From IMG/VR virus record IMGVR_UViG_3300046171_000308: 64,000 bases of DNA. One strand, 5' to 3'. Source of the stretch: an uncultured virus (IMG/VR IMGVR_UViG_3300046171_000308) (lineage: Duplodnaviria; Heunggongvirae; Uroviricota; Caudoviricetes). This document shows positions 9,277 through 29,903 of the stretch, in pieces. The translations under genes and the position numbers were made by a program. The first letter of the stretch is position 1; the number at the start of each line of letters is the position of its first letter. Below the pieces are notes generated by a model that saw only the letters and a list, made by a program, of their open reading frames with translations, was not told where the DNA came from and ran no database searches.

Positions 9277-10581
9277 TCAGCTTAGAATTTTTCTAGCGAG
9301 TATTTCATCTTGGTCTGTAATCTCGTCAGCATATTGACAAAAAACAGTCCACCATTGTAGTATTTCTCCTCTTTTTGGCACTTTAGGTCTTGAAACCTTA
9401 GCCTCTTGAGTAGTTAGAAATACATTATACCATTTATTTAAGAATTGGTCTTCATCGTCGTCATACGGAGAGTATTCAAACGTAAGGTTAAAATTGCTGA
9501 AATAAGGAGGCTCTGTTTCTTGTCTAGTAGTTCTAGACCCAGAGTCTGGTAGTTCACTGTTCGGCCCAATAAGTGCATGGCTAAACGTGACATAATTGTA
9601 GCGTATGTGCCCCCAACTGTAGTAAATACAAACATATTGGCGACCTAAATCATCTACTCCTACTCCAGCTCTGTCAGCATCTTTGTATCGGTTAACAACC
9701 GCTTCACCCCATGGTCTATAGGGCAAAGTTCCGCTGACGCGCTCTTGGATAGAGGAATCTATCCAAACACTTGCAGAACAATTTCGTCCTTCTTTGGAGA
9801 TATTTCCATCTTCATGGAGACCCAAAGTATAGAACTTGTTAGTTTCTGGGGTATAAGCCCAATAAAGGGCACCTCCAGAGTCTTTTGCTCTGCCTGCTTT
9901 GTTAAGCATTTTCTTAAAATCATTCCAAGGCATAGTGGCCTCGAAAACTGGTTTAATTCTATTAGCAGAGTCTATACCGAAAAACGGTATAGTTGTGGTC
10001 TCATTGTACCTATCCTGCCACCCATGAACATGGGAATTTTTACTCCACTGGTATTGAATTTCTATTCCTCCAGTGGCTCTTCTTCTGAAGCCTAAACTAC
10101 TGTGATTTCCACGGTTGTTATAGCCCCATTGTCTTCTTCGCATAGCCATGACTCCATACTTTTCATGCATTTCGTCATCATCTGTCGAACTAAGTAGCAA
10201 GCCCATATCTCCTAAAGATAATGTAGCATGCCTATTGTTTGCAGGAGGGCGATAGTCTCCAGGGCTAAAACTAATTTGACTATTTATGATATGTCGACTA
10301 TTGGTCCTGTAAATAGGCGAGTCGAATACTATTTCTGCGGTTCCTTTATCGCGGAGGTTGTTGAAGGTAATTATTGTACCTTCAGGTCCGGATTCTACGC
10401 ATAAGTCATATTCTTCATTAATATGACTATCATAATTAGGCCCTGTCTGTCGACTAGGCTCAGTAATAGTTAGTCCTGCTAATAGCGCTATCTGAGAAAA
10501 AGTAACAGGAAGTCGCTCAAAATCAATATAAATCGGGCAACATCCTATCTCCTGAGCAACCTCTGTAAATTTGTTACTCAT
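9277..10581 (-). CDS. Hypothetical protein
   Basis: 434-aa ORF. Confidence 0.8.
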   Translation of the reverse strand: MSNKFTEVAQEIGCCPIYIDFERLPVTFSQIALLAGLTITEPSRQTGPNYDSHINEEYDLCVESGPEGTIITFNNLRDKGTAEIVFDSPIYRTNSRHIINSQISFSPGDYRPPANNRHATLSLGDMGLLLSSTDDDEMHEKYGVMAMRRRQWGYNNRGNHSSLGFRRRATGGIEIQYQWSKNSHVHGWQDRYNETTTIPFFGIDSANRIKPVFEATMPWNDFKKMLNKAGRAKDSGGALYWAYTPETNKFYTLGLHEDGNISKEGRNCSASVWIDSSIQERVSGTLPYRPWGEAVVNRYKDADRAGVGVDDLGRQYVCIYYSWGHIRYNYVTFSHALIGPNSELPDSGSRTTRQETEPPYFSNFNLTFEYSPYDDDEDQFLNKWYNVFLTTQEAKVSRPKVPKRGEILQWWTVFCQYADEITDQDEILARKILS

Positions 10582-10766
10582 TTCTTTTTCCTCCTTGCAT
10601 TAGCTCTCTCTTGCTTGTGCTTCTTAGCCATTTCGGCTAGTTCTTTTGGTTGAACTCCGTTAATCATGTTAACGAGAGTTTCCAATGTGTCTGCTATTCT
10701 TTTGGTCTCTTTGACTAAGTCTTCAGAGGCCAATAGCAATTTCTCTTGCAATTCTTCAAGTTTCAC
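10578..10766 (-). CDS. Small basic coiled-coil protein
   Basis: 62-aa ORF, GATAAGTG start. Confidence 0.6.
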   Translation of the reverse strand: MKLEELQEKLLLASEDLVKETKRIADTLETLVNMINGVQPKELAEMAKKHKQERANARRKKK

Positions 10767-10776
10767 TTATCGAGCC

Positions 10777-11124
10777 TTAGCTCGTTTTTTTGTTAATTTC
10801 ATAGCCGCTATCCTTCAAGAAATCCCATACCTGTCGATATGTTCTTCCTACTTTGTTGGCTATCCAGGACACTTGGTGTCCATTTTTGTTATGTATAATT
10901 ACCGCTTGTCCTTCCGGAGTGTCTAGCATTATTCTTCGACGATTCTTTCGTCTCTTTTTCGGAGCTTCAGTAATTACTGGCTCCTCTTTGACTTCAGTGA
11001 TTTCTTTCACTGGTTCTATTTGCTTCTGCTCAATCGCAGGAGCATTTATTGAGGGTAACATACCGAAAATCTCTTGGAAATCGGTAACTTCCCCTTCTAT
11101 GGTTATTTCAATTTTAACTACCAT
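10777..11124 (-). CDS. HTH DNA-binding protein
   Basis: C-terminal HTH-like GHQVSWIANKVGRTYRQVWDFLK. Confidence 0.65.
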   Translation of the reverse strand: MVVKIEITIEGEVTDFQEIFGMLPSINAPAIEQKQIEPVKEITEVKEEPVITEAPKKRRKNRRRIMLDTPEGQAVIIHNKNGHQVSWIANKVGRTYRQVWDFLKDSGYEINKKTS

Positions 11125-11139
11125 GTTGTTCTTATTGGC

Positions 11140-11478
11140 TTACACCATTTCAGAGCTAGTGCAGATATAACATCCTGCAGGTAGCTCTTCGTGGTATAAT
11201 CCAGGTGCCTCATTTTTTGTTCCATAAAGTGGGTGTTCCTTAGAATTAATCGACTGATTATTCAGTGTTGTCCATTTTATTCTCTCCGCCCCTGCACGGG
11301 AAGGAGACCAAATAAGGTCTAGTGAGTATGTATCTTCTCCTAAGCCGGTAGTACAGGTCATAGAATCAAATCTAGTACCTTGTACGTCTTCTATAGAAAG
11401 TGTAACTACACAGCCCTCTTCTGGTATGTCCATATCTAAATGGTTACCTTTGAAGAAGACTTCAGCGTATTCACTCAA
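11140..11478 (-). CDS. Hypothetical protein
   Basis: 112-aa co-oriented ORF. Confidence 0.65.
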   Translation of the reverse strand: MSEYAEVFFKGNHLDMDIPEEGCVVTLSIEDVQGTRFDSMTCTTGLGEDTYSLDLIWSPSRAGAERIKWTTLNNQSINSKEHPLYGTKNEAPGLYHEELPAGCYICTSSEMV

Positions 11479-12853
11479 TTCTATTCAGCTCTGGTAAGTT
11501 CCCTGCTTTTGTGACGTTGTGTACCATAAGTAAACAATCGTCTTCATAGGGATTGCATGTAAATAATCCAGGGCTCTGGGTATCATACATGTTGAAATAC
11601 ATTTTGACACATGTCAAATACTCTGGGCTGAGTAGAAGTCGCGTTTTGGCTAGTTCTGAAGGGGGTATACCCTCCTCTACTAGGTGTGCTTCTATCAGCT
11701 TAGATGCGAGTATAAACTGTGATTGGTCAGCGAGTTTTAATCGTAGATTCTTCGGAAGCCACTGATTAAATTTCTGTGCTGCACCAAACGTAGGCTTTCT
11801 TTCAGTTACTGTTTCGATTGCTGTTGGCAAATCTTCTAGTGAAACTGGTCGTGCATCGCGCACGTCAACCTTGTTAGTTTTCTTAGCTTTACTCTTTTTC
11901 TTTTCTTTTTTCCTTTTCAGGCGCTTGCTGTAATTTACAGCGTCTTGGGATTTATCTTTCTTTTTAGATTTAGATATAACCCTTTTAGGGTTTAGAGCAG
12001 CTATGTATTCGTCTAGCGAGATACTCTTTGCTCTAGCACTAGCGTAGTGTAAATGGATAGGGTTGTCCAAAATCCTCTTGATTTCTGGGCCTTTCCATTT
12101 CTTATTTTTGATTCGCTGTGTGCTTGTTTTCTTTTTCGTAGCTTTCTTTGCAACTTCGTGGTATGAAGTTCTAACTACGTCTGCCATCCATTGAGCTATG
12201 ATTTGCTGCTCTTTCTCGTCAGGGTAAATAAGTCCGTTAACATCTGTTCTCCATCCAAATGGAGTATTGAGTTTGCTATATTTACGCCTTAGTTTAGTAA
12301 GAGTAGCCGTTTCGACAATATTTTTGTTCATAGACTTTGTATCGTCGTCCCAAGCTTTGGTTGGCTTTGGTTTTGGTTTTGGTTTAGCCTTCTCTGGCTT
12401 AGCCGGGCGTGTAAATTTATTCAGGTTTGAATGGAATGGTTGTTCTATCGTTCTCAATACTTGATTACGACTCCATAGTCCTCCTTTCTTACCTCTTATG
12501 CCCTTCTTGTTTAATTTATCAGCAATTTTTGCTGGTTTTGTACCAGCATCTGCTAATCGTTTCATCTTTGCAATTACATCTTGCTCTTCCCAATTAGGTA
12601 CAAATAATCCGTCTTTTTCGTTCCATCCATATAAGGCACTAGTCCATACTTGCATGTTCTTCTTTTTCTCGGTCATTGCTTCCTTGGTTTTCTTTGCAAG
12701 CTTTGCATGATGTTCTTGAACAGTTTCTCGTTCCTGTTCTTTATTAGTAACTTGTGTTACTGCTTGACCCTCAATAAGGTGTCCAAACAGAGTCTTAACG
12801 ACTTCTTTGAACTCTTCTGGGGTTTCTGCTTCAATCTTTACTTCAATTGTCAC
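11471..12853 (-). CDS. Basic protein with two serine-recombinase 'Recombinase' DNA-binding domains and no catalytic domain
   Basis: Two units: LYGW..LFVPNWEEQDVI...IADKLNKKGI..KGGLWSRNQVLRTI and PFGW..LIYPDEKEQQII...KWKGPEIKRILDNPIH. Confidence 0.7.
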   Translation of the reverse strand: MTIEVKIEAETPEEFKEVVKTLFGHLIEGQAVTQVTNKEQERETVQEHHAKLAKKTKEAMTEKKKNMQVWTSALYGWNEKDGLFVPNWEEQDVIAKMKRLADAGTKPAKIADKLNKKGIRGKKGGLWSRNQVLRTIEQPFHSNLNKFTRPAKPEKAKPKPKPKPTKAWDDDTKSMNKNIVETATLTKLRRKYSKLNTPFGWRTDVNGLIYPDEKEQQIIAQWMADVVRTSYHEVAKKATKKKTSTQRIKNKKWKGPEIKRILDNPIHLHYASARAKSISLDEYIAALNPKRVISKSKKKDKSQDAVNYSKRLKRKKEKKKSKAKKTNKVDVRDARPVSLEDLPTAIETVTERKPTFGAAQKFNQWLPKNLRLKLADQSQFILASKLIEAHLVEEGIPPSELAKTRLLLSPEYLTCVKMYFNMYDTQSPGLFTCNPYEDDCLLMVHNVTKAGNLPELNRIE

Positions 12854-12862
12854 TTATCCGCA

Positions 12863-13579
12863 TCACATATATGATGGGTCGAAATATTCTTTCTTTTTCT
12901 TTTCTACCCTATTTTCTAGGCTTCTCATCTTCTCGAGGTCTTCCTCGGAATCGACGATAACGCCACCAAGAGTATGCAAAGTTATGATATTAACTTTAAC
13001 AGCAGTTGCTGCTTCTTTAGGATAGCCCGAGCGTTCTAGGAACTCTGCGAAGCTAATTATCGAAGCTTGTACTGTAAAATCAATGAAAGTCTGCATATCT
13101 TTCTTCAAGGTATCTAACTCATGATTGACGGTTGAAAATATATCTTTATGCTTGGTTTCTCGTTGTCGCTGTCTTAGCAGCCTAGCACGATACCAAAAGA
13201 TACATTCTATCATCAATGTTTGTTCTATACGTTCTTCACCAGGTTTAAACTCCCGGTCTTCGAACTTTTGTTTCAATTCTTTGTGGTCTCCATCGACACT
13301 TGTCAATGCTCCCACAACCTTTATCCCTTCTTGAAATAGCTTATCAAAGCCCTCAACAACGGATTTGTCTATCGTGCCTTCTATGTTATTTCTAACTACT
13401 AGGTGCGGGACTCTACTCCCTGCTGGCACTTGATAAAATCGCTTCCTATCTTCACTAGGAATCGACTCATCTGGTTTTATTCCCTCTTTCAAGAGGGATT
13501 CGTAATAACCCAAAATACCTAAACAGTCTTCGTGTTTTAGTATTTCTAGGTCTCGGTCAATTAGTCTCCATACCGACAT
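12863..13579 (-). CDS. Hypothetical protein
   Basis: ORF track 12863..13591; GATAAGATG start. Confidence 0.75.
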   Translation of the reverse strand: MSVWRLIDRDLEILKHEDCLGILGYYESLLKEGIKPDESIPSEDRKRFYQVPAGSRVPHLVVRNNIEGTIDKSVVEGFDKLFQEGIKVVGALTSVDGDHKELKQKFEDREFKPGEERIEQTLMIECIFWYRARLLRQRQRETKHKDIFSTVNHELDTLKKDMQTFIDFTVQASIISFAEFLERSGYPKEAATAVKVNIITLHTLGGVIVDSEEDLEKMRSLENRVEKKKKEYFDPSYM

Positions 13580-13583
13580 CTTA

Positions 13584-13907
13584 TCATGCACTTTCTAAGT
13601 CAACTATAGTATCATATTTTGCTTCTGCCCCAAATCTATGTAAGGCCTTAATTAAAACTGTGATACTTGACTGTGTTATATGCATATCTTGTATACTGGT
13701 TAGCGCTGTTCTTACTATCTTTTCATCTGCTTGCTTATCAGCAGCCGACATTTTCGACAGTAAGCGCTCTCCATTTTTGACAAACAACGGTAAAGAACTG
13801 AGTTCCTTTATTGCTTGTCTTTTAGCTAAACTAACTTCACGTTCCGTAAGCACTAACTTATCGGATAAGAAAGTAGTTGATGTACTTTGCTGTTTTTTGC
13901 TACTCAT
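13584..13907 (-). CDS. Hypothetical protein
   Basis: 107-aa ORF with GGAGAGGAG SD-like element. Confidence 0.7.
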   Translation of the reverse strand: MSSKKQQSTSTTFLSDKLVLTEREVSLAKRQAIKELSSLPLFVKNGERLLSKMSAADKQADEKIVRTALTSIQDMHITQSSITVLIKALHRFGAEAKYDTIVDLESA

Positions 13908-13910
13908 TGA

Positions 13911-14168
13911 TTACTCCTCCTCTCCAAGTGGTATGGATTTGTGGTCAATATGAGTCCATAAAACTGCTACACCGTTTCTAGCTCTTTTTAGTTCTCGAGT
14001 AACTCCGGCTTGAAAGAACCTTTTATCGGTCTTCAACAAGCCTGTTACTACATTTGTATTAGGGACCCATTTAGTAGGCCACTTATCTACAATTTGTGTT
14101 GCTGTTAAGGGCTTATTAGAGCCCAGTAAAATAGCAGCAATACGGTTTCTCTTAGAAACCCCGCCCAT
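13911..14168 (-). CDS. Small winged-helix-like protein
   Basis: PLTATQIVD...PNTNVVTGLLKTDKRF pattern; similar architecture in 29904..30224 and 43924..44220. Confidence 0.5.
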   Translation of the reverse strand: MGGVSKRNRIAAILLGSNKPLTATQIVDKWPTKWVPNTNVVTGLLKTDKRFFQAGVTRELKRARNGVAVLWTHIDHKSIPLGEEE

Positions 14169-14170
14169 AA

Positions 14171-14563
14171 TTAGGCCTCTGGTTTCTTAATTGATTTAGT
14201 GTCAACAGGAGGGTGAATCGGCCTGAGTGTAACTGAATCCTTCATTGGTGCTTCTTCGCACAATGAATTCCATTCTTTCTCTGCATTTTCCGCAGTCCGT
14301 TCTCCTTCAGGAAGGAGCTTACAGATGTGATTTTTAATCTCATCAATACTAGGCTTTTTAGTCCTAATCCTGTCCACATTTATCGAAGCTTCATAATGTC
14401 TACCGGCATAACTAATTTGTATTTTACCGTGTATTTTCAGCTCCTTAGCAGCTTTTAAAATTTTATCTTGCTGCCTCTTTACTCGTCCTTCAACAAGTTT
14501 CAGTTCTTCCTTGGCTTCTGCGAGCCAAGCTAAATCTTCTTTAATTTTGTCTAAAGAGTTCAC
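14171..14563 (-). CDS. Hypothetical protein with N-terminal coiled coil
   Basis: 130-aa ORF, TATAAGTG start. Confidence 0.7.
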   Translation of the reverse strand: MNSLDKIKEDLAWLAEAKEELKLVEGRVKRQQDKILKAAKELKIHGKIQISYAGRHYEASINVDRIRTKKPSIDEIKNHICKLLPEGERTAENAEKEWNSLCEEAPMKDSVTLRPIHPPVDTKSIKKPEA

Positions 14564-14572
14564 TTATAATAT

Positions 14573-14599
14573 AAAAAAATCCAGCAGTAACGCTGGATT
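14573..14599 (-). terminator. Hairpin plus U-tract terminator after the AAA gene
   Basis: Minus strand AATCCAGC-GTTACT-GCTGGATT followed by TTTTT. Confidence 0.7.
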
Positions 14600-14651
14600 C
14601 TGTGCCCATAGGGCTTTACACTTATGGGGAGTTTCCTCCCCGGGTTATGCT

Positions 14652-16544
14652 TCAAGCACGACCTGCTATTCCAACCTCACCGTAGTCGACCTCTTCAGCC
14701 TCCTCATCAGTTTCGGTGTTGGCGGGTAAGAACCCGCGGTTTAGACAGTTGTCGCGTATTAGGTCTAGCTCCTTTTGGGGAGTAGAGTTCATTGAGTTTC
14801 TGTTGATAGCCTCTATAAAATCGTCAAGTCCTGGCTCTGCTTGTCCTTTCGAACGTTCGAACGCAAGTCTGAATGCACCTTTAACTGCATTCTCGATTTG
14901 TCGACCATTAGCGCCGTCAGTATACTTTAGAAGTTTTTCTAACGGATAATCGTCAGGATTCCGGGGAATCTCTTTATCACCATCGAAATACGTAAATCTA
15001 CGAATACAAATCTTGAGAATCTCAAGTTGCTCTTCCGATGTAGGGTATCCAAACATAAATCTTGCACTTGCTCGGTCGATGAACTCTGGTGGGAGTAATT
15101 CGACACGGTTAGCAGTAAATGCATACATAATGTTAGACTCGTTTTCTTGAATGTCTGTCAACAGCTGTGATAGAATAGAGGTTGTAGAACCCCCATCTCT
15201 GTCAGCCGAGACGTTCTGTACTAGCTTTTCGACCTCGTCAATCCAGATGATTCCATCCATGGACGCTGCTAGGTCTGTAGCTGTCTTAAGCATCTTTGGC
15301 CCTTCACCGACATACTTCTTTCGAAGGTCGGTCGCACCTAGTCTAATCAAAGGTCTAGAAGTGCGATTGGCCAATACTTTTGTCCCGAGGGATTTACCGG
15401 TACCTGGTGGTCCGGCAAAAATAACCATACGGCTACCGGTTAAACCATAACCTATAGCTTCGGGAGTAGAACTTGCAACTTCTATATCCATAAATTCCTG
15501 GAATCGTTGCAGTCCACCAATTTGTTCATTGGGTTTGGGTGTTATCAAGGTAAGTCCATAATCTTTGATTTGACTTGCCTTTTCTTGTAGTATAACTTCA
15601 GGGATTATTTTACTGTGTTCTGAGACACAGATTAGTAGAGCCGCTTCACCTCTAGCACGTGTCATACCTGCTACGGCACTGGCACATCTTTCGAGTTCTT
15701 GCGGCGAAATTCCTACTATTGGATTCCCTTTGTCATCTTGGTTCATTTTCATCTGCTTAACTTCGACGTAATCTTTGATTATATTACGCCAATAAGTCTT
15801 GTTAGGTCTTTTCCAGTCTAGGGAAAAGGAGACTTCTTTTAAACAATCAGGAGTATCTGTAAAATCTCCTGGAACCAGCAGAATAATTGCAATACCATTA
15901 ACATATATGTTACGGCAGTGCTCAGTATGTTCGCGGATAAATTCGTTAAAGGTCGTGAAATTCAATAGATTTTCAGCACCTCTTACGACATAAATACGTC
16001 CGCGTCCTTGTTTTGCAGAGTCAAAGTCATAAATCGACTTCATCAAAGTTTGGGTAATTGCTTCTGCATTCATTTTAACTCCAAACTTTACTCTCTTAGT
16101 TGCCCCTAATACTTTGTGAGAAGATTTTGGTATATCTTCCAAAAATTCTTCATTACAGTCTACGGGGTCTCCATAGGGCATGACTTTTACTGCGTCATTA
16201 GCCCAATCATAGTCACCATTGCCTTCAACAGGAGTGGTAAATGACATAAATGAGGAGCCATCAGGTCTTGCCGTTCTGTCTCCTTTAACCAAACGATATT
16301 CTTGAGGTGCATTAGTAAAACTAGTTACTATGACCTCTGGTCGTTCTTTTTGCCATTTTGGCCCAAAGTTTCGGGCCGCCTCTGTTATAGCTAACTTTAC
16401 TATTTCATTAGTTGTGTCAACTTGTGCTGGTGTTTTTATTAGCATAGTCGGTTCTGTTGCACCGATTAGCGTTGATATTCTAGCGACTCCGTCGGCATTG
16501 CCGTTTGGGTCACTATATGATTTATAATCTATTTTCTTAGACAT
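14652..16544 (-). CDS. Ycf46-like AAA+ ATPase
   Basis: Walker A GPPGTGKS, Walker B IIWIDEVEK, sensor FTANRVELLPPEF; degenerate N-terminal AAA domain; linked to DUF1257/DUF2997-like genes. Confidence 0.85.
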   Translation of the reverse strand: MSKKIDYKSYSDPNGNADGVARISTLIGATEPTMLIKTPAQVDTTNEIVKLAITEAARNFGPKWQKERPEVIVTSFTNAPQEYRLVKGDRTARPDGSSFMSFTTPVEGNGDYDWANDAVKVMPYGDPVDCNEEFLEDIPKSSHKVLGATKRVKFGVKMNAEAITQTLMKSIYDFDSAKQGRGRIYVVRGAENLLNFTTFNEFIREHTEHCRNIYVNGIAIILLVPGDFTDTPDCLKEVSFSLDWKRPNKTYWRNIIKDYVEVKQMKMNQDDKGNPIVGISPQELERCASAVAGMTRARGEAALLICVSEHSKIIPEVILQEKASQIKDYGLTLITPKPNEQIGGLQRFQEFMDIEVASSTPEAIGYGLTGSRMVIFAGPPGTGKSLGTKVLANRTSRPLIRLGATDLRKKYVGEGPKMLKTATDLAASMDGIIWIDEVEKLVQNVSADRDGGSTTSILSQLLTDIQENESNIMYAFTANRVELLPPEFIDRASARFMFGYPTSEEQLEILKICIRRFTYFDGDKEIPRNPDDYPLEKLLKYTDGANGRQIENAVKGAFRLAFERSKGQAEPGLDDFIEAINRNSMNSTPQKELDLIRDNCLNRGFLPANTETDEEAEEVDYGEVGIAGRA

Positions 16545-16559
16545 ATTTATCACTTGTTC

Positions 16560-17960
16560 TAATTTTTACACTGGTGGAATCGGCAGCATTGGGCGACATG
16601 CGGCTTTCCGGACAGGAAAAGCGTATATCGACCCACCATGCGTGACACGTGCGGTTATACTCATAATAGTCTATCTGAGCCGGGCAGCCTGTGCAGGCCT
16701 CTCGAAGGGGTATGATGGTCCGCCAACTGGGCGGATATGGTATCCATACGACTTCGGTCTGGTTCAAAATTATGAGAGCCATCTCAATTGTGGTAACCTG
16801 GTGTGGTTTCCGGAGGAGATGTTACTCGTGTTTATGATACTACTAAAGTTGCAAACTTTATGCAACATTAATTTAGTATTAATCAGACTTCTCGTCTGGC
16901 TCCATAAACATCACAGATGATGTACATGACTTGTGTCATTATAGTAATCCCTACAAATAATAGCTAAATTCTAGTCCCGGAGTAGTCTCCGGAAATATTC
17001 TTCTCGAGTCGTGAGAAAAAACAGTGGAATCTTCAGTTGGAGTAGGTTGACTAGTTAGTTGATTAATGTGTAACTTTAATTTAAGTTACTAGTTAAGTAT
17101 ACTTTAGAAAAACTTTATCCGTTAAAGATTGTTTTTAATTTAAACATCAACCATCTTAAGTGGTTAAGGTCTCTATTTTAGTAGGAATATGATTGGAGTT
17201 CAACTCCTTTAGTTCCACTGCGCAATGCATTGCAACTTTAGTCGTTGTCGACGTGACACTTTTCAGTGACGATGTCAGTTTGTTCTCCATGGTACAAATT
17301 CTGTGTCCAACGAGTTATTAGTTTTGCCTAATAACACGTGTCTTTCCGTGATATCAATTAATTTTGGTCCAGTTCAGGTCCCTGAAGACTGCTAAGAATG
17401 GATGGTTCATCCGAAGCATTCGCAATCTTTTGTGGGATTCACACTCACTAGTGTGCGTCCTGATGACCCATTCACGTAGTTACCCTAATGTGACATGTGT
17501 CAAATTAGGATATTTGTTGTTTAGTACGATGCCTCACCCAGGGATAAGCTTCAACTCGGCTACCTTCTGAGTAGTAAATCAGTAGGTGCTGAATCTAGTC
17601 TCATCTCTAAACGATGTACTGCGAGCCTTTCTGGTCTCTTTTCGCAATATTACTTGCAAGTAGTCCAAGCTATACGTAGCTTGAAACATCTAAGTCTAGA
17701 GCTCTGCAGCTAAGGCAGTTCTTTTTCCAGGGTCCCTAGGAAGAGCGCTTAACGCGTCCTCCAGCACCTGGTAAGGGTTACCTTCTATGTTTACTTCATA
17801 TGTTTCAGGCTTGCGCCTGAAGACATGTGTGCGTATCGTGATGTTTGGTCGTATTAATCGTAATGTGTCGTATTAATTTTCAATCACATGTTACAGGCGC
17901 AAGCCTGAAACATATTTCCTTTTCATTGGGGTTTTACTCCCTCAAGGGTATATTTACCGT
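16560..17960 (-). ncRNA. Putative large structured non-coding RNA (about 1.4 kb)
   Basis: No credible ORF; more than 20 short stem-loops and long-range helices (CAGTGGAA 17022 / TTCCACTG 17213). Strand inferred from operon orientation. Confidence 0.6.
17798..17915. repeat. 22-bp perfect inverted repeat enclosing two GTCGTATTAAT direct repeats
   Basis: ATATGTTTCAGGCTTGCGCCTG 17798-17819 / CAGGCGCAAGCCTGAAACATAT 17894-17915. Confidence 0.95.
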
Positions 17961-17973
17961 TCCTTATAGGTAA

Positions 17974-18192
17974 TTAATCACCTAGCTCTTGTGTATAAGC
18001 CTGTTTAGGCTCTGCTTGAGCTACGTTATAGTTACCATGTCTGACCGTTTCGATAGTTTCAAACTGAAAATTGCTCGGAAGGTTGTCTAGAATCTTGTTA
18101 ATAGCTTCTTGACAAGTTTTGCCCTTAAATCCTGCAACAGCTTCTACTTCAAACGTGCCGTCTTCTCCGATAATAATTTTTATGGTACCCAT
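17974..18192 (-). CDS. DUF2997-family protein
   Basis: IKIIIGEDGTFEVEAVAGFKGKTCQEA matches the family pattern; context with DUF1257 and Ycf46. Confidence 0.75.
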   Translation of the reverse strand: MGTIKIIIGEDGTFEVEAVAGFKGKTCQEAINKILDNLPSNFQFETIETVRHGNYNVAQAEPKQAYTQELGD

Positions 18193-18729
18193 TTAGAATC
18201 CTCCTAAAGAGCCACCAAGCTTATTCTTATCTTTCTTTTCATTCAGGCCGAGTGAACCAGTTTGTAGTGTCACTTCAAATTGGCCTGTTTTGTTATCTTT
18301 AGATACTCTCTTAATACCCATACTTGCCATACCTCGGGCAATAGCAGCTTTTTCCAAAGCTTTTGCCGTAACCATAGCATTTAGGTTCTTTTCGAAGGTA
18401 TTTCGGTCTGAACGTCCTTCAAAAGTATCTTTGAGTTGTTGATTTCCTCTAACAACATAGCTGTCCCATGCAAGTTGAACTTGGCCGCCTTCGTCTACAT
18501 AGACTCCGACATCCGAGTTGGACCCGTGGAACCGTATTTTAATATCAGCAAACCGAGAGTCCGCTGAGATATGGTCTTGGCTTTGTAGCCTGAGACCTTT
18601 ACTTCCTTTTTCTTTTATTGTGACGTTGCCAGCTTCGCCTACCAGTTCGGTAACAGCTTCGCCAAGCAAGTCAAATTGGTCTTCATCAATAGTAAGACCT
18701 TTAATTGCCATCTTTTGTGTTGTTGACAT
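18193..18729 (-). CDS. DUF1257 (Ycf35-like) family protein
   Basis: DVGVYVDEGGQVQLAWDSY motif; gene context. Confidence 0.7.
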   Translation of the reverse strand: MSTTQKMAIKGLTIDEDQFDLLGEAVTELVGEAGNVTIKEKGSKGLRLQSQDHISADSRFADIKIRFHGSNSDVGVYVDEGGQVQLAWDSYVVRGNQQLKDTFEGRSDRNTFEKNLNAMVTAKALEKAAIARGMASMGIKRVSKDNKTGQFEVTLQTGSLGLNEKKDKNKLGGSLGGF

Positions 18730-18748
18730 ATTTTTCTAATACACTAAT

Positions 18749-18995
18749 GTGGCACTCTGCATCTCAGAGCCCAAAGGGTTGTGAAACCCTCTACGTCCCG
18801 GAACGACTTTCGTCGCAATCAATCTAGGTCAAGATTAAGTAAACTTTGGAGGTCTACTTCGTCTTCGCCCAGAAAAGCTGTCCAGGGGTTGTGTACGCCC
18901 TCTTTTCTATGACCTTGATGTCTTCTCTTTAATGCAGGTGGGACGCAACGTGCCACTTATATCAAGGTCATAGAACCTGCTTCTTAAAAAGAGAA
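18749..18995 (-). promoter_or_regulatory. Structured 5' leader with competing or pseudoknotted helices
   Basis: GTGGCAC/GTGCCAC (18749/18950) crosses a 15-bp helix (18905-18919/18961-18975); CGAC-GAAA-GTCG GNRA loop on the minus strand. Confidence 0.55.
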
Positions 18996-19005
18996 TATAT
19001 ATCAC

Positions 19006-19040
19006 AAAAAAAAGAGACACATGTCTGGACATGTGTCTCT
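19006..19040 (-). terminator. Hairpin plus U8 terminator
   Basis: 13-bp perfect stem AGAGACACATGTC/GACATGTGTCTCT followed by a T8 tract on the minus strand. Confidence 0.75.
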
Positions 19041-19323
19041 ATTTCTTACTTATGTAACAGTGCCGGGAGGCACTATTACGGTAGGGCCAATCTTCTGTCA
19101 TAAATGACTTTCTGATTGTTCAAGTAACCAAAATTAATAATTGCGCCCAACTATAAATTCCTTAATGGTTACTTTCATCCTATGTTTCTATCTACTATCC
19201 AGCTTTGCGTAAAGCCGTATATGATAATAGTTTTCACACTAATAAATAGGCTGGGCGAACCATGCCTTTTTGTTACTGGACTACTGTTATTAAATTGAGT
19301 TAGGTCGTAGTCACCTCCCGTCC

Positions 19324-19356
19324 TCATATTGTAGCGCCGAGCTAAGTAGTATTACT
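19324..19356 (-). promoter_or_regulatory. Bipartite motif copy 1 (AGTARTACTAC-N8-GCGCTACAATATGA), putative promoter
   Basis: Four copies with an identical 14-mer, an 11-mer with one variable base, and a fixed 8-nt variable spacer. Confidence 0.75.
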
Positions 19357-19864
19357 TAGTCAGCTTCCACTTATTACTAGTATTTACAACAAAATTTAGC
19401 TGTGAAGCTAATTTCTGCTATATTCACAGTACATAGATATTATGGATTTGCAGTCCTTAATTTCTATGGTAATAATCTCCATCTCTTTCGGCGTTAACCG
19501 AAGGAGCCTACGAGAAATAACCTGGAGTTCAGTCTGGCTAGACCGTGGTTATTTCAAGTCCTTTAACATACTCAATTTTGCTTCGGAAAGCTCTATCGAA
19601 TATCTCAAAAATTCATTAGTTGCGTGGGTTGAGAACCCAGTACACTAATGCCCTGTTCTTTCGCTTTTGCGTCGGGATTTGCAAAGCGGCATTATTAGGA
19701 GTAACTCAGACGGGTGGCAGTTTACCGCCACGGTTCCGAGCTGTTCTGCTCCTATTTACTTATCACTTATCTAGCTAGAGACTAATACACTAATCACTTA
19801 GCGTTACTCTTAGCCATACACATAAAGTGCGGGGGCATATCGAGTGTTATGCTTACTCCCTGGC

Positions 19865-19897
19865 TCATATTGTAGCGCCTTTGGGAGTAGTATTACT
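19865..19897 (-). promoter_or_regulatory. Bipartite motif copy 2
   Basis: TCATATTGTAGCGC 19865-19878 and GTAGTATTACT 19887-19897. Confidence 0.75.
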
Positions 19898-20021
19898 TAT
19901 ACACTTATCACTCCCATAGTGGGAATGTTGTTTTACTCATTTTTTTGAGTATTATAATTTGTCTCCAGGAGCGAGTTTTTCTGCATGTTCGTCCTGTTCT
20001 TTAGTTAATTCTTTCAATGAT

Positions 20022-20210
20022 TTAGCCATTTTTAACAGGCCTTTGTCGTTTTATTTGGGTTTCTAGAGTTTCAATATACTCTCGTAGAGCTAGGATTTGT
20101 TCGTTCTTTTCTTGAAGCCAAGTTTCTAATTTTCTAACTTGTGCTTCTAAATCCCATATCTCTCGTTTCTCAGGTGATGGTCTCCCTTGTGGAGGTCCCC
20201 ATCCACCCAT
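20022..20210 (-). CDS. Small coiled-coil protein
   Basis: 62-aa ORF, TAATG coupling with the upstream gene. Confidence 0.65.
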   Translation of the reverse strand: MGGWGPPQGRPSPEKREIWDLEAQVRKLETWLQEKNEQILALREYIETLETQIKRQRPVKNG

Positions 20211-20497
20211 TATTCATCATCTCCGAATCGCATTATCATATCTTTAGTTGCTTGACTAGCTTGTTCCATTGCTGGTATCATGCTAAATCGTGCAAAAATA
20301 TGACCGCATTTTAATCTCGGTCCGATTATTTTTTGTCCATCAGGCAGATACGCTTCGACGATTATGTCGGTGTGTCGTATGCCTTCTGTAACTACTGTTA
20401 CTTCTGTACCGATATCTTCTTGGGTCCAAATTTTTTCTTCTTCATTGTTCTTCATAATTTTACCTCCTACCGTAGTAGGATACTTATTGTTATTCAT
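20210..20497 (-). CDS. Hypothetical protein
   Basis: 95-aa ORF. Confidence 0.65.
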   Translation of the reverse strand: MNNNKYPTTVGGKIMKNNEEEKIWTQEDIGTEVTVVTEGIRHTDIIVEAYLPDGQKIIGPRLKCGHIFARFSMIPAMEQASQATKDMIMRFGDDE

Positions 20498-21144
20498 CGC
20501 TTATTTCTAGCTTTTCGGTTCTTTAGTCCCAAGTTTTCAGGACCCCAATTGAATTCTTGGGGCACTTCAACTATAATACTAGTTCTTGTAACCTTTTCAC
20601 CAGCTTTGTGCTGTTCATAACGTTTTAGCATGGTCTTTTTACGCATGGTTCCTATACTCTTTGTATTTCTAGGGGTTGCGTGTCCATTTGCTAAATGTTC
20701 ATCTAATTTAATTTGAACAAGGCCTTCAGGCCCATTTAGCCAAGAAAACAGGTCAGTGCCCGTTTCTTCTTTAGCTATTTCCATAGTCATTAATAGATGA
20801 TTTTGTCTTATATTTGTTGTCCTTAGAAAGTTATGGAAACCATAGCCTCTATTCAACATAATTAATTGCACCAGTTCTTCGTGCGAGTACTTCTGCATCA
20901 GAAATGCAGTATGTATACTCAAACATTCATCATCACAAGTCTTTCGTCTATTACTTGTTTTGAATTTAGTATTGCATACTATACATTCTCGCTCTACTTC
21001 TGGTCTGTGTTCAACCCACCATTCTTCTCGGCAGGCTTGTTTACAAAATCTGTTGCCATTTTGTATTGCAACATATTTTTTATGACACATGTCACATGAG
21101 TGTAATTGCCCAATTAAGGGGCTGGATTTGCTTCCTTTTCTCAT
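20494..21144 (-). CDS. Zinc-finger protein
   Basis: Two CxxC...CxxxC units (CDMC..CKQAC; CIVC..CDDEC). Confidence 0.7.
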   Translation of the reverse strand: MRKGSKSSPLIGQLHSCDMCHKKYVAIQNGNRFCKQACREEWWVEHRPEVERECIVCNTKFKTSNRRKTCDDECLSIHTAFLMQKYSHEELVQLIMLNRGYGFHNFLRTTNIRQNHLLMTMEIAKEETGTDLFSWLNGPEGLVQIKLDEHLANGHATPRNTKSIGTMRKKTMLKRYEQHKAGEKVTRTSIIVEVPQEFNWGPENLGLKNRKARNKR

Positions 21145-21379
21145 GCTTGTGGCCTCGCATCATAATCTAAATTAATTGAGGGTTCTAGATTTTCAATGTA
21201 AATGTACTCTTCAGTCGCTATTACAAATTTGATTTTCTTATCCATTTTTCTATCACCTCAATTCTTCTTTCTAGTGCTCTGTTCTTAGACACTAGTCTTT
21301 TAACTTGTCGTCGAAGCTCATTGGCCTCTATTTCAAGTTGTCTTTGTGTTGTAAATGTCTTTACTCTGTTCACTTATTA

Positions 21380-22000
21380 CTACCATTTAACCGGGTAACA
21401 ACCCAGCTCATATTTGGCAGTATCTATAGAATGTTGACCAACGACGATAATGTGGTGTTTATCGCCAATAAAGTGGAGCATGGGGGTAAACCCGTTACTC
21501 GGTTGCTCATGTTCTTCTCTCAAAGTGATAGATTTCACTTCAAACACTTGGTCATTCTGATACATGAGAGCCCTTCTTAGTCTGGAGCGCGAAACCGCTA
21601 CTCCTAAAATTTCAACATGGTCTGCATTGAAGTGCTTTCTATCGCCTGAATAGGCGAAAAATTCTCCTTCTCGGTGACCAATCATTTTCATTTGCTCTCT
21701 AAGTTTTATAGCGGTTAAACCGCCCTTTCTTGTTATTTTACATTTATCTTCATTTAAATCATTCATACGAAGTTCTAACTCAAACTTGAAACATTTGGTA
21801 TCAACTTTGGCTGCGAAAATCGTAGAAAAGACAAATGTGTGGGGCATAGCCCACTCATCAGTGTGAATGACATCAGTACATTCACATGGTTGACATAGTT
21901 CAGGGAGCCTCTCTCTTACTAACCTATTAGTGGTTGTAAGTGTAGGGCACCTTTTCTGAACAAATTTTTTACGTAGTTTTTCAAAAATTTCGTCGCTCAT
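21380..22000 (-). CDS. Hypothetical protein
   Basis: 206-aa ORF with ATAAGTGTATTAG leader. Confidence 0.75.
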   Translation of the reverse strand: MSDEIFEKLRKKFVQKRCPTLTTTNRLVRERLPELCQPCECTDVIHTDEWAMPHTFVFSTIFAAKVDTKCFKFELELRMNDLNEDKCKITRKGGLTAIKLREQMKMIGHREGEFFAYSGDRKHFNADHVEILGVAVSRSRLRRALMYQNDQVFEVKSITLREEHEQPSNGFTPMLHFIGDKHHIIVVGQHSIDTAKYELGCYPVKW

Positions 22001-22022
22001 TTTTCTCTAATACACTTATTGG

Positions 22023-22517
22023 TTATTCACCGCCCCATATATCAACAGAAGGATAATAGGTTTTATCGACAGAGTCAAACACCATAGAAACGTATTTCCA
22101 AGTTTCCGGTTTTTTGAATGTCTCAAATCGCTTGTTATTATTTCCCTTGTGTCCATGGAAGGCATATAACCATGCTAAAAGTAAACCAGTTGCACCTGAA
22201 GTATACAGGTAAAAAGTTACTTTAGCGTTTGGTTGGCCAAAGTTTGCATGTATTCTGGCCTTAATAAATTTCAGAAAGTTAAAGACATGCTCGTAGTGAG
22301 CTTCCCAGTTTTGGGGTTCTATTACTTTCTTAGAGAATAGTGCAAACTTAATGGCGTTTCCATCTTCGTCTCTATACTTATGTCTATCATAAGATAATCC
22401 GATTTTGATTACGTAAGTTTCATCTTCTCTTTTTTCTAAATTTTCTAGTATGTAAGGCACAATGTGCCTATGAGTCCACTCTTCATCTGAGAGTGGGTCT
22501 AGTTCTTCTAGCGTCAT
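22023..22517 (-). CDS. Hypothetical protein
   Basis: 164-aa ORF. Confidence 0.75.
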   Translation of the reverse strand: MTLEELDPLSDEEWTHRHIVPYILENLEKREDETYVIKIGLSYDRHKYRDEDGNAIKFALFSKKVIEPQNWEAHYEHVFNFLKFIKARIHANFGQPNAKVTFYLYTSGATGLLLAWLYAFHGHKGNNNKRFETFKKPETWKYVSMVFDSVDKTYYPSVDIWGGE

Positions 22518-22750
22518 GATAACACCCCAAAGGCGTTAACGACGTTTTCAATATCTTCATCTACTGGGTTAATTACTTCTTTTGCGTTAATTCTTTCTTG
22601 CATAGCAATCACTATTTGTTGTGAATCGAGATGCAATTTCTCTGTTAAATTTAACATAAAGTCTACCAATAGATTTTCTATTTCTTCGACATGTGGCGTT
22701 TTAGTTGGTTTCCCTCTAACCCGCTGCCATAGTTTGTGTAGTCTGCTCAT
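22514..22750 (-). CDS. Hypothetical protein
   Basis: 78-aa ORF with ATGA overlaps on both sides. Confidence 0.65.
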   Translation of the reverse strand: MSRLHKLWQRVRGKPTKTPHVEEIENLLVDFMLNLTEKLHLDSQQIVIAMQERINAKEVINPVDEDIENVVNAFGVLS

Positions 22751-23154
22751 GCAGGTACCTCTATAGCATCTGTCTTGGTTTTGTCAAACTCCGCCATTTC
22801 GGCTTTGTTTGCTTCTGCCAGTATTTCTAGCGAACTCATTACATTGAAGGTAAAAGACGCAGCTTTGCCTGTGGCACAGCGTGTCAATAGGCCAGCACGG
22901 TTACTAGAAAGCCGCTGAATAATATTCTTCGTTCCTTCTGCTGTTCGTGCTGGTTTTCCCTTTACATGTGTTATGTTCACCGTTATTTGCGAGTAGTTTA
23001 TTTCGCTACTCTTGTTGTGCATAGCTAGTGCTAGACCCCAGGCAGTTTCATTAAACAGTTCTGGTTTTTTGCGGTATTGTACCGGTAGTCTATCTTTTAT
23101 TTCTTTTACTAGCCACAATTTCAATGGGTTCAAAATCATCTTCATTTCTTCCAT
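22747..23154 (-). CDS. Hypothetical protein (possible winged helix)
   Basis: 135-aa ORF. Confidence 0.65.
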   Translation of the reverse strand: MEEMKMILNPLKLWLVKEIKDRLPVQYRKKPELFNETAWGLALAMHNKSSEINYSQITVNITHVKGKPARTAEGTKNIIQRLSSNRAGLLTRCATGKAASFTFNVMSSLEILAEANKAEMAEFDKTKTDAIEVPA

Positions 23155-23198
23155 TTTTGTCTTATTACTGCTCTAGGCAGTATTGGTTGGTATGTTGC

Positions 23199-24356
23199 TT
23201 AAAATAAGTTTAGCTTACTCAGTAAGTCTTTTATTTCGTCTACTTCAGCAGGTTCTTCTTGAATATCAGGTTCAATGATTTCCTCTACTTCTTCAACGGG
23301 TTCTTCAACTTCTGGCTTGTCACTAACTTCGTAAGTCCACAAACCTTCATCATAAATGCAGCGCAAAGCAGGTTGTAAGTCCCGGGCGATTCCCCAGGCC
23401 CACTTCTCGTTTGCGCGTTTTATCTCATTTAGTTCTTTTAAGTCTTTTAGCGAAGCATATTCAGCTCCGTGTTCAACATCCCATAATTCTTGCATTTCTT
23501 GGTATAAATAGGAATTAGTGCTAAATATACTTGAATGTCTATCTGTTAGGTTAATCAGGTTCTCTCCAACAAAGTTTTGCTGAAGTGTACCGATTTGTCC
23601 TTTAAGGTAAGGTTTTAGGTTCCCGTCTAGGCGCTTGTCAGCACCTCTTATTGCTCGGGTCCTAAATAAGGTAGTAATGTTTTCCTCGGTGACTAAATCT
23701 TCACCAAAGCTACCTTTGTCCATTTCTAGCTGTATATCCTCAAACTTGAGCCGTCCTTTGTCCAGGAAGATTTTGGCAACAGTGCACAAAGTCTTCTGGT
23801 CGTCGTATAAACTCTTTAGAGTAGCTAGTGTTTCATCGCTAAGATTGTAACTTAGCGCGGTTTTTAGGTCAGGCGTAATAAACTCGGCTCTTGATAATTT
23901 CATAGCCGCAATTTTATTGTTTATACCTGGTCCTGTTTTCCAATGCGCGTCACCGAACACTGCATTATTACATGCAGTAGCCCAAAAGGCGCGCAATATT
24001 ATTGCTTGTCTAGACTTGTAATAAGTCTTGACAGATTTTTTGCTAAAACCGACTGAAAACTTCTTGATTTGTGAATGGCTAGGGAAAAATTGTCGCATAA
24101 CGCGCTTAATTTCTTTAGCCGTCCGGCCTTCATTTTTTAGAATGCCTCGGACAAAACTAGCAAAGGTGCTGTTTGGTCCACAAACCTTGGTAATCGAAGA
24201 TGGTAGGCTCAAGTGTAGGTGGCCAAATCCATCAACGCGTCCGTTGGTTTTCATCATTGTTTTCTCAGGTATAGCTTCTCGCCAACCTGCGTCTGTAGCT
24301 GGTATTAAAACCATAGTCGCAAGCAGGCTTGTCAAAATAATTGTTAGTTCAATCAT
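23199..24356 (-). CDS. Hypothetical protein with signal-peptide-like N-terminus and acidic tail
   Basis: MIELTIILTSLLATMVLIPATDA. Confidence 0.75.
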   Translation of the reverse strand: MIELTIILTSLLATMVLIPATDAGWREAIPEKTMMKTNGRVDGFGHLHLSLPSSITKVCGPNSTFASFVRGILKNEGRTAKEIKRVMRQFFPSHSQIKKFSVGFSKKSVKTYYKSRQAIILRAFWATACNNAVFGDAHWKTGPGINNKIAAMKLSRAEFITPDLKTALSYNLSDETLATLKSLYDDQKTLCTVAKIFLDKGRLKFEDIQLEMDKGSFGEDLVTEENITTLFRTRAIRGADKRLDGNLKPYLKGQIGTLQQNFVGENLINLTDRHSSIFSTNSYLYQEMQELWDVEHGAEYASLKDLKELNEIKRANEKWAWGIARDLQPALRCIYDEGLWTYEVSDKPEVEEPVEEVEEIIEPDIQEEPAEVDEIKDLLSKLNLF

Positions 24357-24362: not shown

Positions 24363-24703
24363 CTAATCACACTTATGAGTCCCGAGAGGCAGAGCCTCAA
24401 GGGAAACGAATTGTTGGTTTTATTCATAGGCAATGGTATAAGCAATACGTAGTATTTCTTCTATTGCCTTTTCAGCTTCAGGGCCAAACATTCTAGGGCC
24501 AGTCCCGGCGTCCCAGCATAAATCGTCGAAGAAAGTCAGATATTGATTTTCCTCTTCTTTTTCGTCTATAAAATATTCAAACAATTCTCTCAATTTTATC
24601 TTCGTATCATCTAACATTTTTATGCTTTATAGATACTTGACTAATCACACTTATGAGTCCCGAGAGGCAGTGCCTCAAGGGAAACGAATTGTTGGTTTTA
24701 TTC
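24363..24703. repeat. 63-bp intergenic direct repeat (24363-24425 / 24641-24703) containing a hairpin and the ATAAGTGTGATTAG leader
   Basis: One mismatch, in the hairpin loop. Confidence 0.95.
24420..24617 (-). CDS. Small protein, paralog of 24698..24961
   Basis: Shared KLRELFE N-terminus and similar C-terminal helix. Confidence 0.7.
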   Translation of the reverse strand: MLDDTKIKLRELFEYFIDEKEEENQYLTFFDDLCWDAGTGPRMFGPEAEKAIEEILRIAYTIAYE

Positions 24704-27672: not shown

Positions 27673-27690
27673 ATTAATCTAATCACACTT

Positions 27691-27731
27691 AAAATAAAAA
27701 AAACCGGGATAGTTTTAACGCTATCCCGGTT
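27691..27731 (-). terminator. Hairpin plus U-tract terminator
   Basis: 11-bp stem AACCGGGATAG/CTATCCCGGTT followed by a T-rich tract on the minus strand. Confidence 0.8.
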
Positions 27732-28465
27732 AATTGATATAAAAACCCGCCAACTTCCGCGCACCACTGAGCCCCCGGCTTTATCCGGTGGGGCTCACTA
27801 ATGTGGGCGTATATCCTCGAGCTCTTGCGAGCTTCGTAGCTGGAGTTCTGTTCCCCTCTAAAAGAGGGTTGATAAATTACTGTGCGACCTTACCCACTAA
27901 CTTCATCAGCTAGCAGGTTCGCCGGGCTTAAGCCCTATTTTGGTCTCATGATTTTATATCAGGACTCACGAAGAGTCCCTGGCGAGTGTGGTAAATTGTG
28001 TGTGTGCGTAATGCACTTAATTTTTCAGTTGGAGGCACTTCTAGCATAAGCTAGCATACCATACAGGTTGTCCAACAACCTTCCAATCAGTTTTCATCAC
28101 TCACTTATCTCGGTTTGGGGGTATGACTTTTGGTCACCTCGACTTTGCAGTCAGATTCTCCCCATGCCGAGGTTGTGCTTACCGCACTGATAGGCTCCCA
28201 ATCCACGAATGGCAGAGGGAGCTTGAGTCTCTTAATCTAGTATTGTTGCCTAAATTTATATCTTCCAGTACTAGATAGATAAGAGGTGTACGTCGTCGTT
28301 TATTGGTGGGTGCTTTCTTACTCGTAACATCTGTAGGCATACATATAATGTTACGCGCCTCTCCGGCGTATGTAGCTTAACTACATCTCACCTGCCTTTA
28401 TATTTTATTACCGTACTAATTGAAGGGAGGCTTTGCATTGTTTACTTTGTCTCCTGCTCTCTCCT
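27691..28465 (-). ncRNA. Putative structured ncRNA (about 770 nt)
   Basis: ORF-free; runs from motif copy 3 to the terminator; many GC-rich stems and a multibranch domain at 28109-28171. Confidence 0.6.
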
Positions 28466-29900: not shown

Positions 29901-29903
29901 AAA

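Follow-up and report, generated by a model that had tools for sequence, protein, structure and literature searches.

Large non-coding RNAs (ncRNAs) of bacteria and phages, such as GOLLD, ROOL and OLE, keep both their sequence and their structure over the full length. The Weinberg 2010 collection reportedly comprises orphan riboswitch candidates and structured 5' leader motifs found by comparative genomics. To our knowledge, few cis-regulatory RNAs are known in archaea. Non-coding control DNA is familiar from small replicons (the polyomavirus non-coding control region, the RNA I/RNA II system of ColE1 and iteron regions) and from archaeal replication origins, in which inverted origin recognition box (ORB) elements surround an AT-rich stretch. 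The locus described here lies on 64 kb of DNA from an uncultured virus (IMG/VR record IMGVR_UViG_3300046171_000308; this whole stretch is called the window), where about 1.4 kb without open reading frames (ORFs) separate a gene of the DUF2997 family from the gene of an AAA ATPase. The original prediction took this gap for a giant, multidomain ncRNA. What comparison with relatives firmly gives is a conserved non-coding locus whose two ends are structured and covary, with a new leader motif upstream of the AAA gene and a hypervariable, palindrome-rich interior.

Each of the described systems shares some features with this locus. The AAA leader resembles the orphan riboswitch candidates in its size (67-95 nt), its covarying helices and invariant loops, its fixed site upstream of one gene family and its discovery only by comparison of metagenomic relatives; unlike them it has no Rfam match, lies in what appears to be an archaeal mobile element and forms the end of a much longer non-coding locus. 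GOLLD, ROOL and OLE have in common with the gap a kilobase scale, the lack of ORFs, a mobile element as carrier and a richness in hairpins, but only the ends of the gap are conserved, no model matches it and its host seems to be archaeal. Conserved sites within rapidly varying non-coding DNA, palindromes, direct repeats and variation between otherwise near-identical genomes recall the control regions of small replicons, although the gap is much longer, adjoins no initiator gene, has no shared AT-rich unwinding element and shows no sign of antisense RNAs. As in archaeal ORB origins, a unique inverted repeat flanks a spacer with short repeats; however, its arm sequences are not conserved, the spacer (41-77 nt) is not especially AT-rich and no Orc1/Cdc6 gene adjoins it.

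The gap extends from 16554 to 17973 among genes of the minus strand. Each of its six frames contains 27-36 stop codons and, because all three kinds of stop occur in every frame, no stop reassignment opens one. Only two ORFs exceed 60 amino acids (aa), one of 81 aa on the minus strand, which overlaps the start of AAA, and one of 92 aa on the plus strand, and neither matches Pfam or PHROG, in agreement with the absence of ORFs first noted for this gap. The 81-aa ORF, which crosses the leader, was considered as a gene and rejected because the leader carries indels that are not multiples of three together with compensatory pairs, and because its tblastn matches are partial and occur in six loci only. 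The window, first described as otherwise wall-to-wall coding, is roughly so, but four other stretches of at least 300 nt lack ORFs of at least 70 aa: 18740-20209 (1.47 kb, adjoining), 27683-28618, 47943-48908 and 24367-24697. At 27683-28618 and 47943-48908, the density of short hairpins is 7.5 and 8.3 per kb, respectively (window median, 4).

Nineteen relatives of the AAA protein were found, at 47-87% identity, and a metagenome scan with an alignment of its N-terminal part yielded 36 loci. In all 18 examined loci that hold both genes (a count leaving out L114, the twin of L112), the DUF2997 and AAA genes lie 1421-2519 nt apart without a long ORF; the longest stop-to-stop frame is of 163 codons, and ten of the longest ORFs gave no Pfam match. 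The gap is supported, in 18/18 relatives examined, as a conserved, functional non-coding feature of the element. By blastn against the relatives, only its first 60-180 nt and last ~100 nt are conserved, and the whole is built of three parts, a 5' end of ~180-240 nt, the hypervariable interior and a 3' end of ~120 nt. The Rfam search proposed with the original prediction (Rfam 15, gathering score) found no match to any family, riboswitches and ribozymes included, in the 64-kb window or in the loci of 10 relatives (140,618 bases), in line with the original remark that no hallmarks of group I/II introns, RNase P or the signal recognition particle were seen. At relaxed E-values only microRNA-precursor, long non-coding RNA and small RNA models appeared, far below their gathering scores, the microRNA-precursor matches falling on the long hairpin of the gap. 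Nothing in the phage collection matches the gap DNA. No description of these ORF-free regions was found in the literature searched: 'non-coding', 'noncoding' and 'intergenic' are absent from the main texts of PMC5434244 and PMC11706807, and 'non-coding' and 'noncoding' from that of PMC10160649.

The 3' end, just upstream of the AAA gene, has a constant order of AT-rich box, invariant GTGTCA and a 67-nt, probably pseudoknotted fold. In the window, these elements lie on the minus strand, with the TATA-like box GTATAA at 16655-16660, GTGTCA at 16643-16648 and the core of the leader at 16572-16638. The fold is composed of P1 (16633-16638 with 16572-16577), the hairpins P3 (16618-16622 with 16603-16607) and P4 (16598-16601 with 16586-16589), and a possible pseudoknot P2, in which 16627-16632 would pair with the P4 loop (16591-16597); the loop AUCGCCC is complementary to GGG(U)CGAU. 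A linker (16545-16571), in which relatives carry TTGTATTAGG(A), connects the folded leader with the start codon. The alignment comprises 29 of the 35 available upstream ends, leaving out the near-duplicates L081, L088, L095, L096, L114 and L115, and both GTGTCA and CAT are invariant in all 29, with the AT-rich 8-mer at a fixed position. Paired positions can pair in 87% of cells versus 39-48% when the partners are slid, and 12 pairs are doubly changed in a total of 52 cells, compared with 14.4±4.4 cells in shuffles (0/500 reaching this number). With a model-fitted alignment, 92% of cells are paired and 11 pairs and 61 cells doubly changed. G·U pairs are frequent in the orientation of the AAA gene.

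A covariance model built on this fold finds a single leader copy (47-127 bits) in each of 35 sources, on the same strand as the AAA gene and ending 0-30 nt ahead of its start. The two sources without a match (L084 and L116) begin inside the AAA gene and have no upstream DNA. The best other matches score 17-18 bits, with no second copy in the window, and an exact search for the leader pattern in GTDB genome representatives and IMG/VR found nothing. On comparative grounds the leader is a new structured RNA motif that occurs once per locus. Its fixed position upstream of AAA and its secondary structure with compensatory changes are those of a cis-regulatory leader, and we read it as a probable cis-regulatory RNA, either riboswitch-like or protein-binding. 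The AT-rich box and GTGTCA together form a putative archaeal promoter with an operator half-site; because the TATA-like box begins ~22 nt upstream of P1, the usual promoter geometry would place the start of transcription at the foot of P1. A pairing of the 5' loop with the 3' motif was also considered and discarded, the complementarity being limited to the shared core TGACAC/GTGTCA and without covariation.

The order of elements at the 5' end is likewise common to all 19 sequences compared: the DUF2997 stop, hairpin A, hairpin B, the invariant CAATGAAAAG and a long inverted repeat. In the window, the conserved segment after the stop occupies 17919-17965 (minus strand), with the invariant hairpin A at 17962-17965 and 17944-17947, hairpin B at 17937-17941 and 17928-17931, and CAATGAAAAG at 17919-17928. 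Hairpin B covaries, with three pairs and seven cells doubly changed (14 of 19 sequences), and 95% of its cells are paired versus 35-72% with the partners slid. The inverted repeat (17798-17915, assigned to no strand) is perfect over 22 bp, with arms at 17798-17819 and 17894-17915 and a 74-nt spacer containing TTAATACGAC twice as a direct repeat (17867-17876 and 17848-17857). Stems of 20-52 bp are present in 19/19 sequences, with perfect outer runs of at least 20 bp in 18/19 and up to 46 bp, while the arm sequences are unrelated between relatives. Loops of 41-77 nt contain direct repeats, AATGAC(A/C) in most relatives and TTAATACGAC in the window. It is the longest inverted repeat in each of seven sources scanned, including the whole 64-kb window. 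Only nine G·U pairs occur among ~730 pairs of these stems, and this near absence of wobble pairs, together with the symmetry, favours a DNA-level site or a concerted evolution of the arms. In our reading the repeat would act at the DNA level, although it may be a perfect RNA hairpin.

Between these ends, the interior (16672-17797 in the window, minus strand) is 1.0-2.1 kb long, A-rich and hairpin-rich, and is nearly unalignable between relatives with near-identical flanks. Among pairs chosen by AAA identity, the first kilobase of AAA is 96-100% identical, yet the gap upstream of the 3' motif matches at only 60-87% in 18 of 21 pairs, where ~60% is the floor of the alignment scoring; the three exceptional pairs come from the near-identical trio L094/L095/L096. 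Four pairs include both flanks; in these, 218-238 nt at the start of the gap and 113-119 nt at its end are 95-100% identical, and only short colinear islands remain between them. The window and L081 are 100% identical over the 1.9 kb of AAA but 85% identical in the gap, with identical patches alternating with replaced ones and a substitution spectrum that is not adenine-specific. Interior substitutions do not preserve predicted pairs beyond random ones at the same sites (16 tests on predicted local pairs in four close pairs, both directions and both strands, p 0.07-0.96). Covariation among homologs, a check suggested for the gap as a whole, was seen at both ends (the leader and hairpin B) and not in the interior, and the notion of one conserved fold along the whole gap is not supported. 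In our reading, the interior is a fast-turning-over, palindrome-rich spacer without a conserved fold, probably transcribed with the operon.

One sequence motif, TGACA-NN-TGTCA, is common to all interiors. Its 11-mer (one mismatch allowed) is present in 20/20 interior sequences, and exact sites number 25 in ~35 kb of gap (0.71 per kb) against 4 elsewhere in the same 17 loci (0.02 per kb), an enrichment of ~30-fold in gaps, with sites in 15/17 loci. The window site in the gap (17491-17502, no strand) lies within the CCTAAT...ATTAGG hairpin of the original prediction. Over the whole window there are eight sites (4167, 4353, 11605, 17491, 21083, 35713, 50864 and 60455), seven of which read TGACACATGTCA on one strand, where a simple calculation gives an expectation of ~0.01, and with two mismatches there are 30 matches on both strands against 4.9±2.3 expected. 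Two of the palindromes, in inverted arms at 4162-4181 and 4350-4369, flank the region upstream of a PriS-like primase gene, and the half-site recurs in the loop of the inverted repeat and in the AAA promoter region. Since its centre is only 2 nt long, the palindrome cannot be an RNA hairpin, and it looks like the site of a dimeric DNA-binding protein; across the window, the palindromes are likely sites of a DNA-binding regulator of the element. The palindromes ATCGAT, CTGCAG and ACTAGT are 10-30 times commoner in gap interiors than in AAA genes of the same loci (L082-L112). A wider k-mer enrichment of the interior relative to the AAA gene was set aside as mostly coding bias.

The hairpins that had suggested a giant RNA are real: the seven listed stem-loops and an 8-bp pairing between 17022 and 17213 are all present in the sequence, although the 22-bp inverted repeat was absent from that list. 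The 17022/17213 helix, first regarded as a long-range closing helix, is within chance, as by a simple calculation ~15 such pairs are expected in 1.4 kb; six of its eight pairs hold in L081, one of them via a double change. Short perfect hairpins (stem of at least 6, loop 3-10) number 15 in the window interior against 2.7±2.0 in dinucleotide shuffles (0/200 reach 15), a density of 13.3 per kb compared with a window median of 4 per 1-kb tile, but the coding tiles 1-1000 (18) and 14001-15000 (14) are as dense or denser. Among relatives, interiors contain 7-14 hairpins per kb and the AAA gene 2.6-6.3, with the exception of L112, whose AAA gene has 11.6, and perfect 7-bp hairpins over 16 interiors number 93 against 14 expected. 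Folding energy, another check proposed at the outset, gives z-scores of -7.4, -2.8 and -4.0 for the thirds of the gap and -3.2 and -3.6 for two AAA coding controls; the first value is explained by the inverted repeat at 17798-17915 lying in that third. Any excess over chance depends on the measure: short hairpins are enriched, but by free energy the gap, the inverted-repeat third excepted, is not special. A sliding z-score scan was negative everywhere, and hence not discriminating, and pairwise alignment-fold z-scores of the window and L081 (+0.7 to -5.3, mononucleotide column shuffle) were judged uninformative.

Sparse RNA data hint weakly at transcription of the module, the 5' 600 nt of the gap included. 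Twelve runs contain small shares of the region and four were examined, all as assembled contigs and few per run, which give neither strand nor ends and may derive from DNA. Contigs of the metatranscriptome X8 lie on 17479-17628, 17674-17963, the gene of a 178-aa protein upstream of DUF2997, two parts of a second ORF-free gap and the 5' part of AAA, and those of X2 (whose RNA label is a guess) on 17347-17488, 17526-17837 and a portion of AAA. The contigs of two oligo-dT runs fall on the AAA and p130 genes and miss the gap, but are too few to signify. No contig covers 16554-16680, and 16574-17275 is uncovered in all four runs, which at such contig numbers says nothing.

The explanation that we tentatively prefer, at a little short of an even chance, is that the gap is a conserved three-part non-coding control locus combining a leader RNA, DNA-level sites and a fast-evolving transcribed spacer, and belongs to a plasmid-like 'group D magrovirus' element of Marine Group II archaea. 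The AAA gene would have its own promoter, formed by the AT-rich box and GTGTCA just ahead of the 67-nt leader, and AAA expression would be set by a ligand or protein that binds the invariant loops of this leader. The inverted repeat with its TGAC-type direct repeats, CAATGAAAAG, the two small hairpins, the interior palindromes and the promoter half-site would be DNA sites bound by a dimeric DNA-binding protein encoded by the element, the DNA-level reading being suggested by the 2-nt loop that the palindromes leave and by the near-perfect Watson-Crick pairing of the inverted repeat. The interior would be transcribed with the operon as a spacer without a conserved fold. A weakened form of the giant RNA, namely one long sense RNA of 1.4-2.5 kb (a discrete ncRNA or an inter-cistronic transcript) with structured ends and interior hairpins selected for their presence rather than their sequence, competes with this control locus and seems to us doubtful, though deserving real weight. 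Several observations count in its favour and against the control locus. The sense strand of the interior is A-rich in 19/19 sequences, short hairpins are enriched in 11/11 interiors tested (z 4.2-9.6), hairpins with one G·U pair over 16 interiors are somewhat more enriched on the sense strand (99 found, 28 expected) than on the antisense strand (94 found, 38 expected), and contigs of the two RNA-labelled libraries together lie on 17347-17963; taken jointly, the A-rich strand, the hairpin array and the RNA contigs fit a long RNA. Read-through transcription of the whole gap, likely because the operon is all on one strand, also counts against the control locus. In favour of the long RNA there are, further, the covarying helices with sense-strand G·U pairs at both ends, and five of 12 window interior hairpins are identical in L081, with six of the seven changed ones keeping a stem of at least 5 bp in the aligned segment. 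The pair-preservation tests used minimum-energy predicted pairs, with poor alignments in the most variable patches, and P2 is nearly invariant among relatives and for that reason barely probed by covariation. On the other side, those tests gave no excess of pair-preserving substitutions, alignment-fold and single-sequence z-scores are like those of coding DNA, perfect hairpins occur symmetrically on both strands, and a palindrome whose spacer is only 2 nt long cannot form an RNA hairpin. In addition, chance alone should give a stem of at least 5 bp in about one in three such segments (an estimate), the AT-rich box and invariant half-site ahead of P1 suggest that the AAA leader has its own start, and the contigs may come from DNA. 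The very fast change of the interior between relatives with near-identical flanks argues against one conserved giant RNA, so that what survives of the original prediction is a conserved functional non-coding locus, outside Rfam classes, not an intron and with covarying ends, whereas one conserved fold along the whole length is not supported. A bolder version, which we think unlikely, would make the whole 1.4-2.5 kb one discrete RNA with a 5' long-hairpin domain, a 3' pseudoknot and a hairpin-array interior kept diverse by selection, serving as a specificity determinant (in copy control, incompatibility or as an anti-defence decoy) and handled by the small proteins and the tandem AAA protein, with a second such RNA upstream of the 178-aa gene.

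The inverted repeat with its iteron-like repeats could instead be an origin or partition site within a replication or maintenance control region, the interior then being an incompatibility or immunity determinant whose diversity selection would maintain and which would be exchanged by recombination via the conserved ends. Each source, of 17-64 kb, has a single long inverted repeat whose spacer contains direct repeats; repeat units and arms change together between clades (AATGAC versus ATACGAC), conserved ends flank a diverged interior in 4/4 close pairs holding both flanks, the window and L081 are mosaic elsewhere too, and passages of PMC10160649 suspect group D magroviruses, which the element resembles, of being plasmid-like. 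We nevertheless consider this quite unlikely, as the 19 gaps share no AT-rich unwinding region, no skew switch occurs at the site, no Orc1/Cdc6-type or Rep initiator adjoins (the neighbour being a classical AAA protein) and the PolB and primase genes are 13-20 kb away. It is more improbable still that the interior has no function, as spacer or decayed DNA that separates an element downstream of DUF2997 from the promoter and leader of AAA and diverges through lack of constraint and recombination. Such a spacer would explain why the interior is neither conserved nor covarying, and low-identity mosaic patches are also found in genes (75-77% at 14187-14486), but 1.4-2.5 kb are kept in 18/18 relatives of a dense genome, hairpins are enriched several-fold in 11/11 interiors and palindromes ~30-fold, short colinear conserved islands are present, and 13-40% divergence stands beside genes with 0-4%. 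That the gap belongs to a known class (group I/II intron, GOLLD/ROOL/OLE, CRISPR array, target of a diversity-generating retroelement or hidden gene under another code) is hardly credible. Nothing beyond size and hairpins speaks for it, apart from the microRNA-precursor matches below gathering score, and none of these classes appeared in Rfam even at relaxed E-values. With regard to introns, the DUF2997 gene carries a stop codon and the AAA gene a start codon of its own, full-length AAA relatives are of 626-664 aa, and the flanking ORFs are complete genes. No direct-repeat family of the kind expected of a CRISPR array lies within the gap, the families touching it pairing one gap copy with a copy outside, and the only tandem arrays found were three of two to three copies (scores 37-40). 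The presence of all three stops in every frame argues against a hidden gene, and the substitution spectrum argues against a retroelement target.

The genes around the gap had been described as a DUF1257-DUF2997-Ycf46 module, of which the DUF2997 member is confirmed. This minus-strand gene (17974-18192, 72 aa) matches PF11211 at 26.8 bits (cutoff 24.1), with copies in relatives above (L087, 25.8 bits) and below (L112, 21.6 bits) the cutoff, and no match among phage proteins. The supposed DUF1257 gene (18193-18729, minus strand) encodes the 178-aa protein of unknown family; neither this protein nor five relatives match DUF1257 at E<=1. Its structure model (predicted local distance difference test score, pLDDT, 80) has no match in the PDB at E<=0.001, and VIA-align gave weak RnlA, uL6 and KA1-like rows with Z <=6.1, within the common range. 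The ATPase (14652-16553, minus strand; 633 aa from GTG 16553) matches the generic AAA family (PF00004, E 7.6e-23) and probably starts at ATG 16544 instead, because the relative P0001 starts at MSKKI. It is predicted to be a tandem protein, in which a degenerate AAA+-like domain (residues 1-360) precedes a classical C-terminal AAA domain; the model of the N-terminal domain has a pLDDT of 79 and matches RFC5, RuvBL and Sir3 AAA+ domains at E ~2e-7 with a template modelling score of ~0.3. Phages and IMG/VR hold only distant AAA-domain matches to this protein, and PADLOC found only generic AAA similarity to IetA and TRIP13 in the flanking proteins.

The plan of the first gap is repeated in the second ORF-free region (18730-20209, minus strand, stops in all frames), which lies directly upstream of the gene for the 178-aa protein. 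It is ORF-poor in relatives too (~1.6-2.2 kb) and ends, in 10 main-clade relatives, in a conserved motif of ~110 nt with a closing helix (GGUGGUUCU...AGAACC), in which five of 23 predicted pairs are doubly changed; the clade of the window has a different conserved sequence in its place. Two strong hairpins in this region (19006-19047 and 18905-18975) have 200-nt z-scores of ~-7 to -9, the former being an almost loop-less palindrome that contains GACACATGTC twice. A family of ~57-nt repeats (CTCCC..CTCATATTGTAGCGCC..AGTAGTATTACTTA) occurs in non-coding stretches at 19315-19371, 19856-19912, 28457-28507 and 29850-29906, possibly as promoters or other regulatory sites.

The element itself looks like a magrovirus of 'group D', with Marine Group II archaea as its host, because its gene set of thermosome, RNA polymerase A, DNA polymerase and resolvase matches. 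Window genes include that of a thermosome subunit (NCBIfam thermosome_alpha, 509 bits, cutoff 450) and one for a protein of 1677 aa in which the archaeal RNA polymerase subunits A' and A'' are fused. Others encode a family B DNA polymerase, two serine recombinases, a PriS-like primase and a GmrSD nuclease; a scan of 20 large ORFs of the window revealed no capsid gene. In passages of PMC5434244 and PMC10160649, group D elements are described as carrying DNA polymerase, thermosome, resolvase and RNA polymerase A without capsid genes, and their nature as undetermined and possibly plasmid-like. L081 is a near-identical strain, mostly 97-100% identical over window positions 9387-23721, interrupted by low-identity patches at 14187-14486 (75-77%, inside a 130-aa gene), 21389-21937 (36-48%) and 23137-23571 (42-73%) as well as within both ORF-free gaps. 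Recombination between diverged lineages of the element seems to be frequent.

Group D magroviruses are abundant yet enigmatic elements of Marine Group II archaea for which the choice between virus and plasmid is unsettled, and the gap provides a conserved, single-copy non-coding landmark for them. It brings to the archaea at least one new structured RNA motif, and probably a second, as well as a candidate DNA-binding site spread over the genome that points to a candidate regulatory system. A hairpin-rich interior that differs strongly between genomes with identical flanking genes poses an evolutionary puzzle, which may reflect diversifying selection or a mutational process that generates palindromes.

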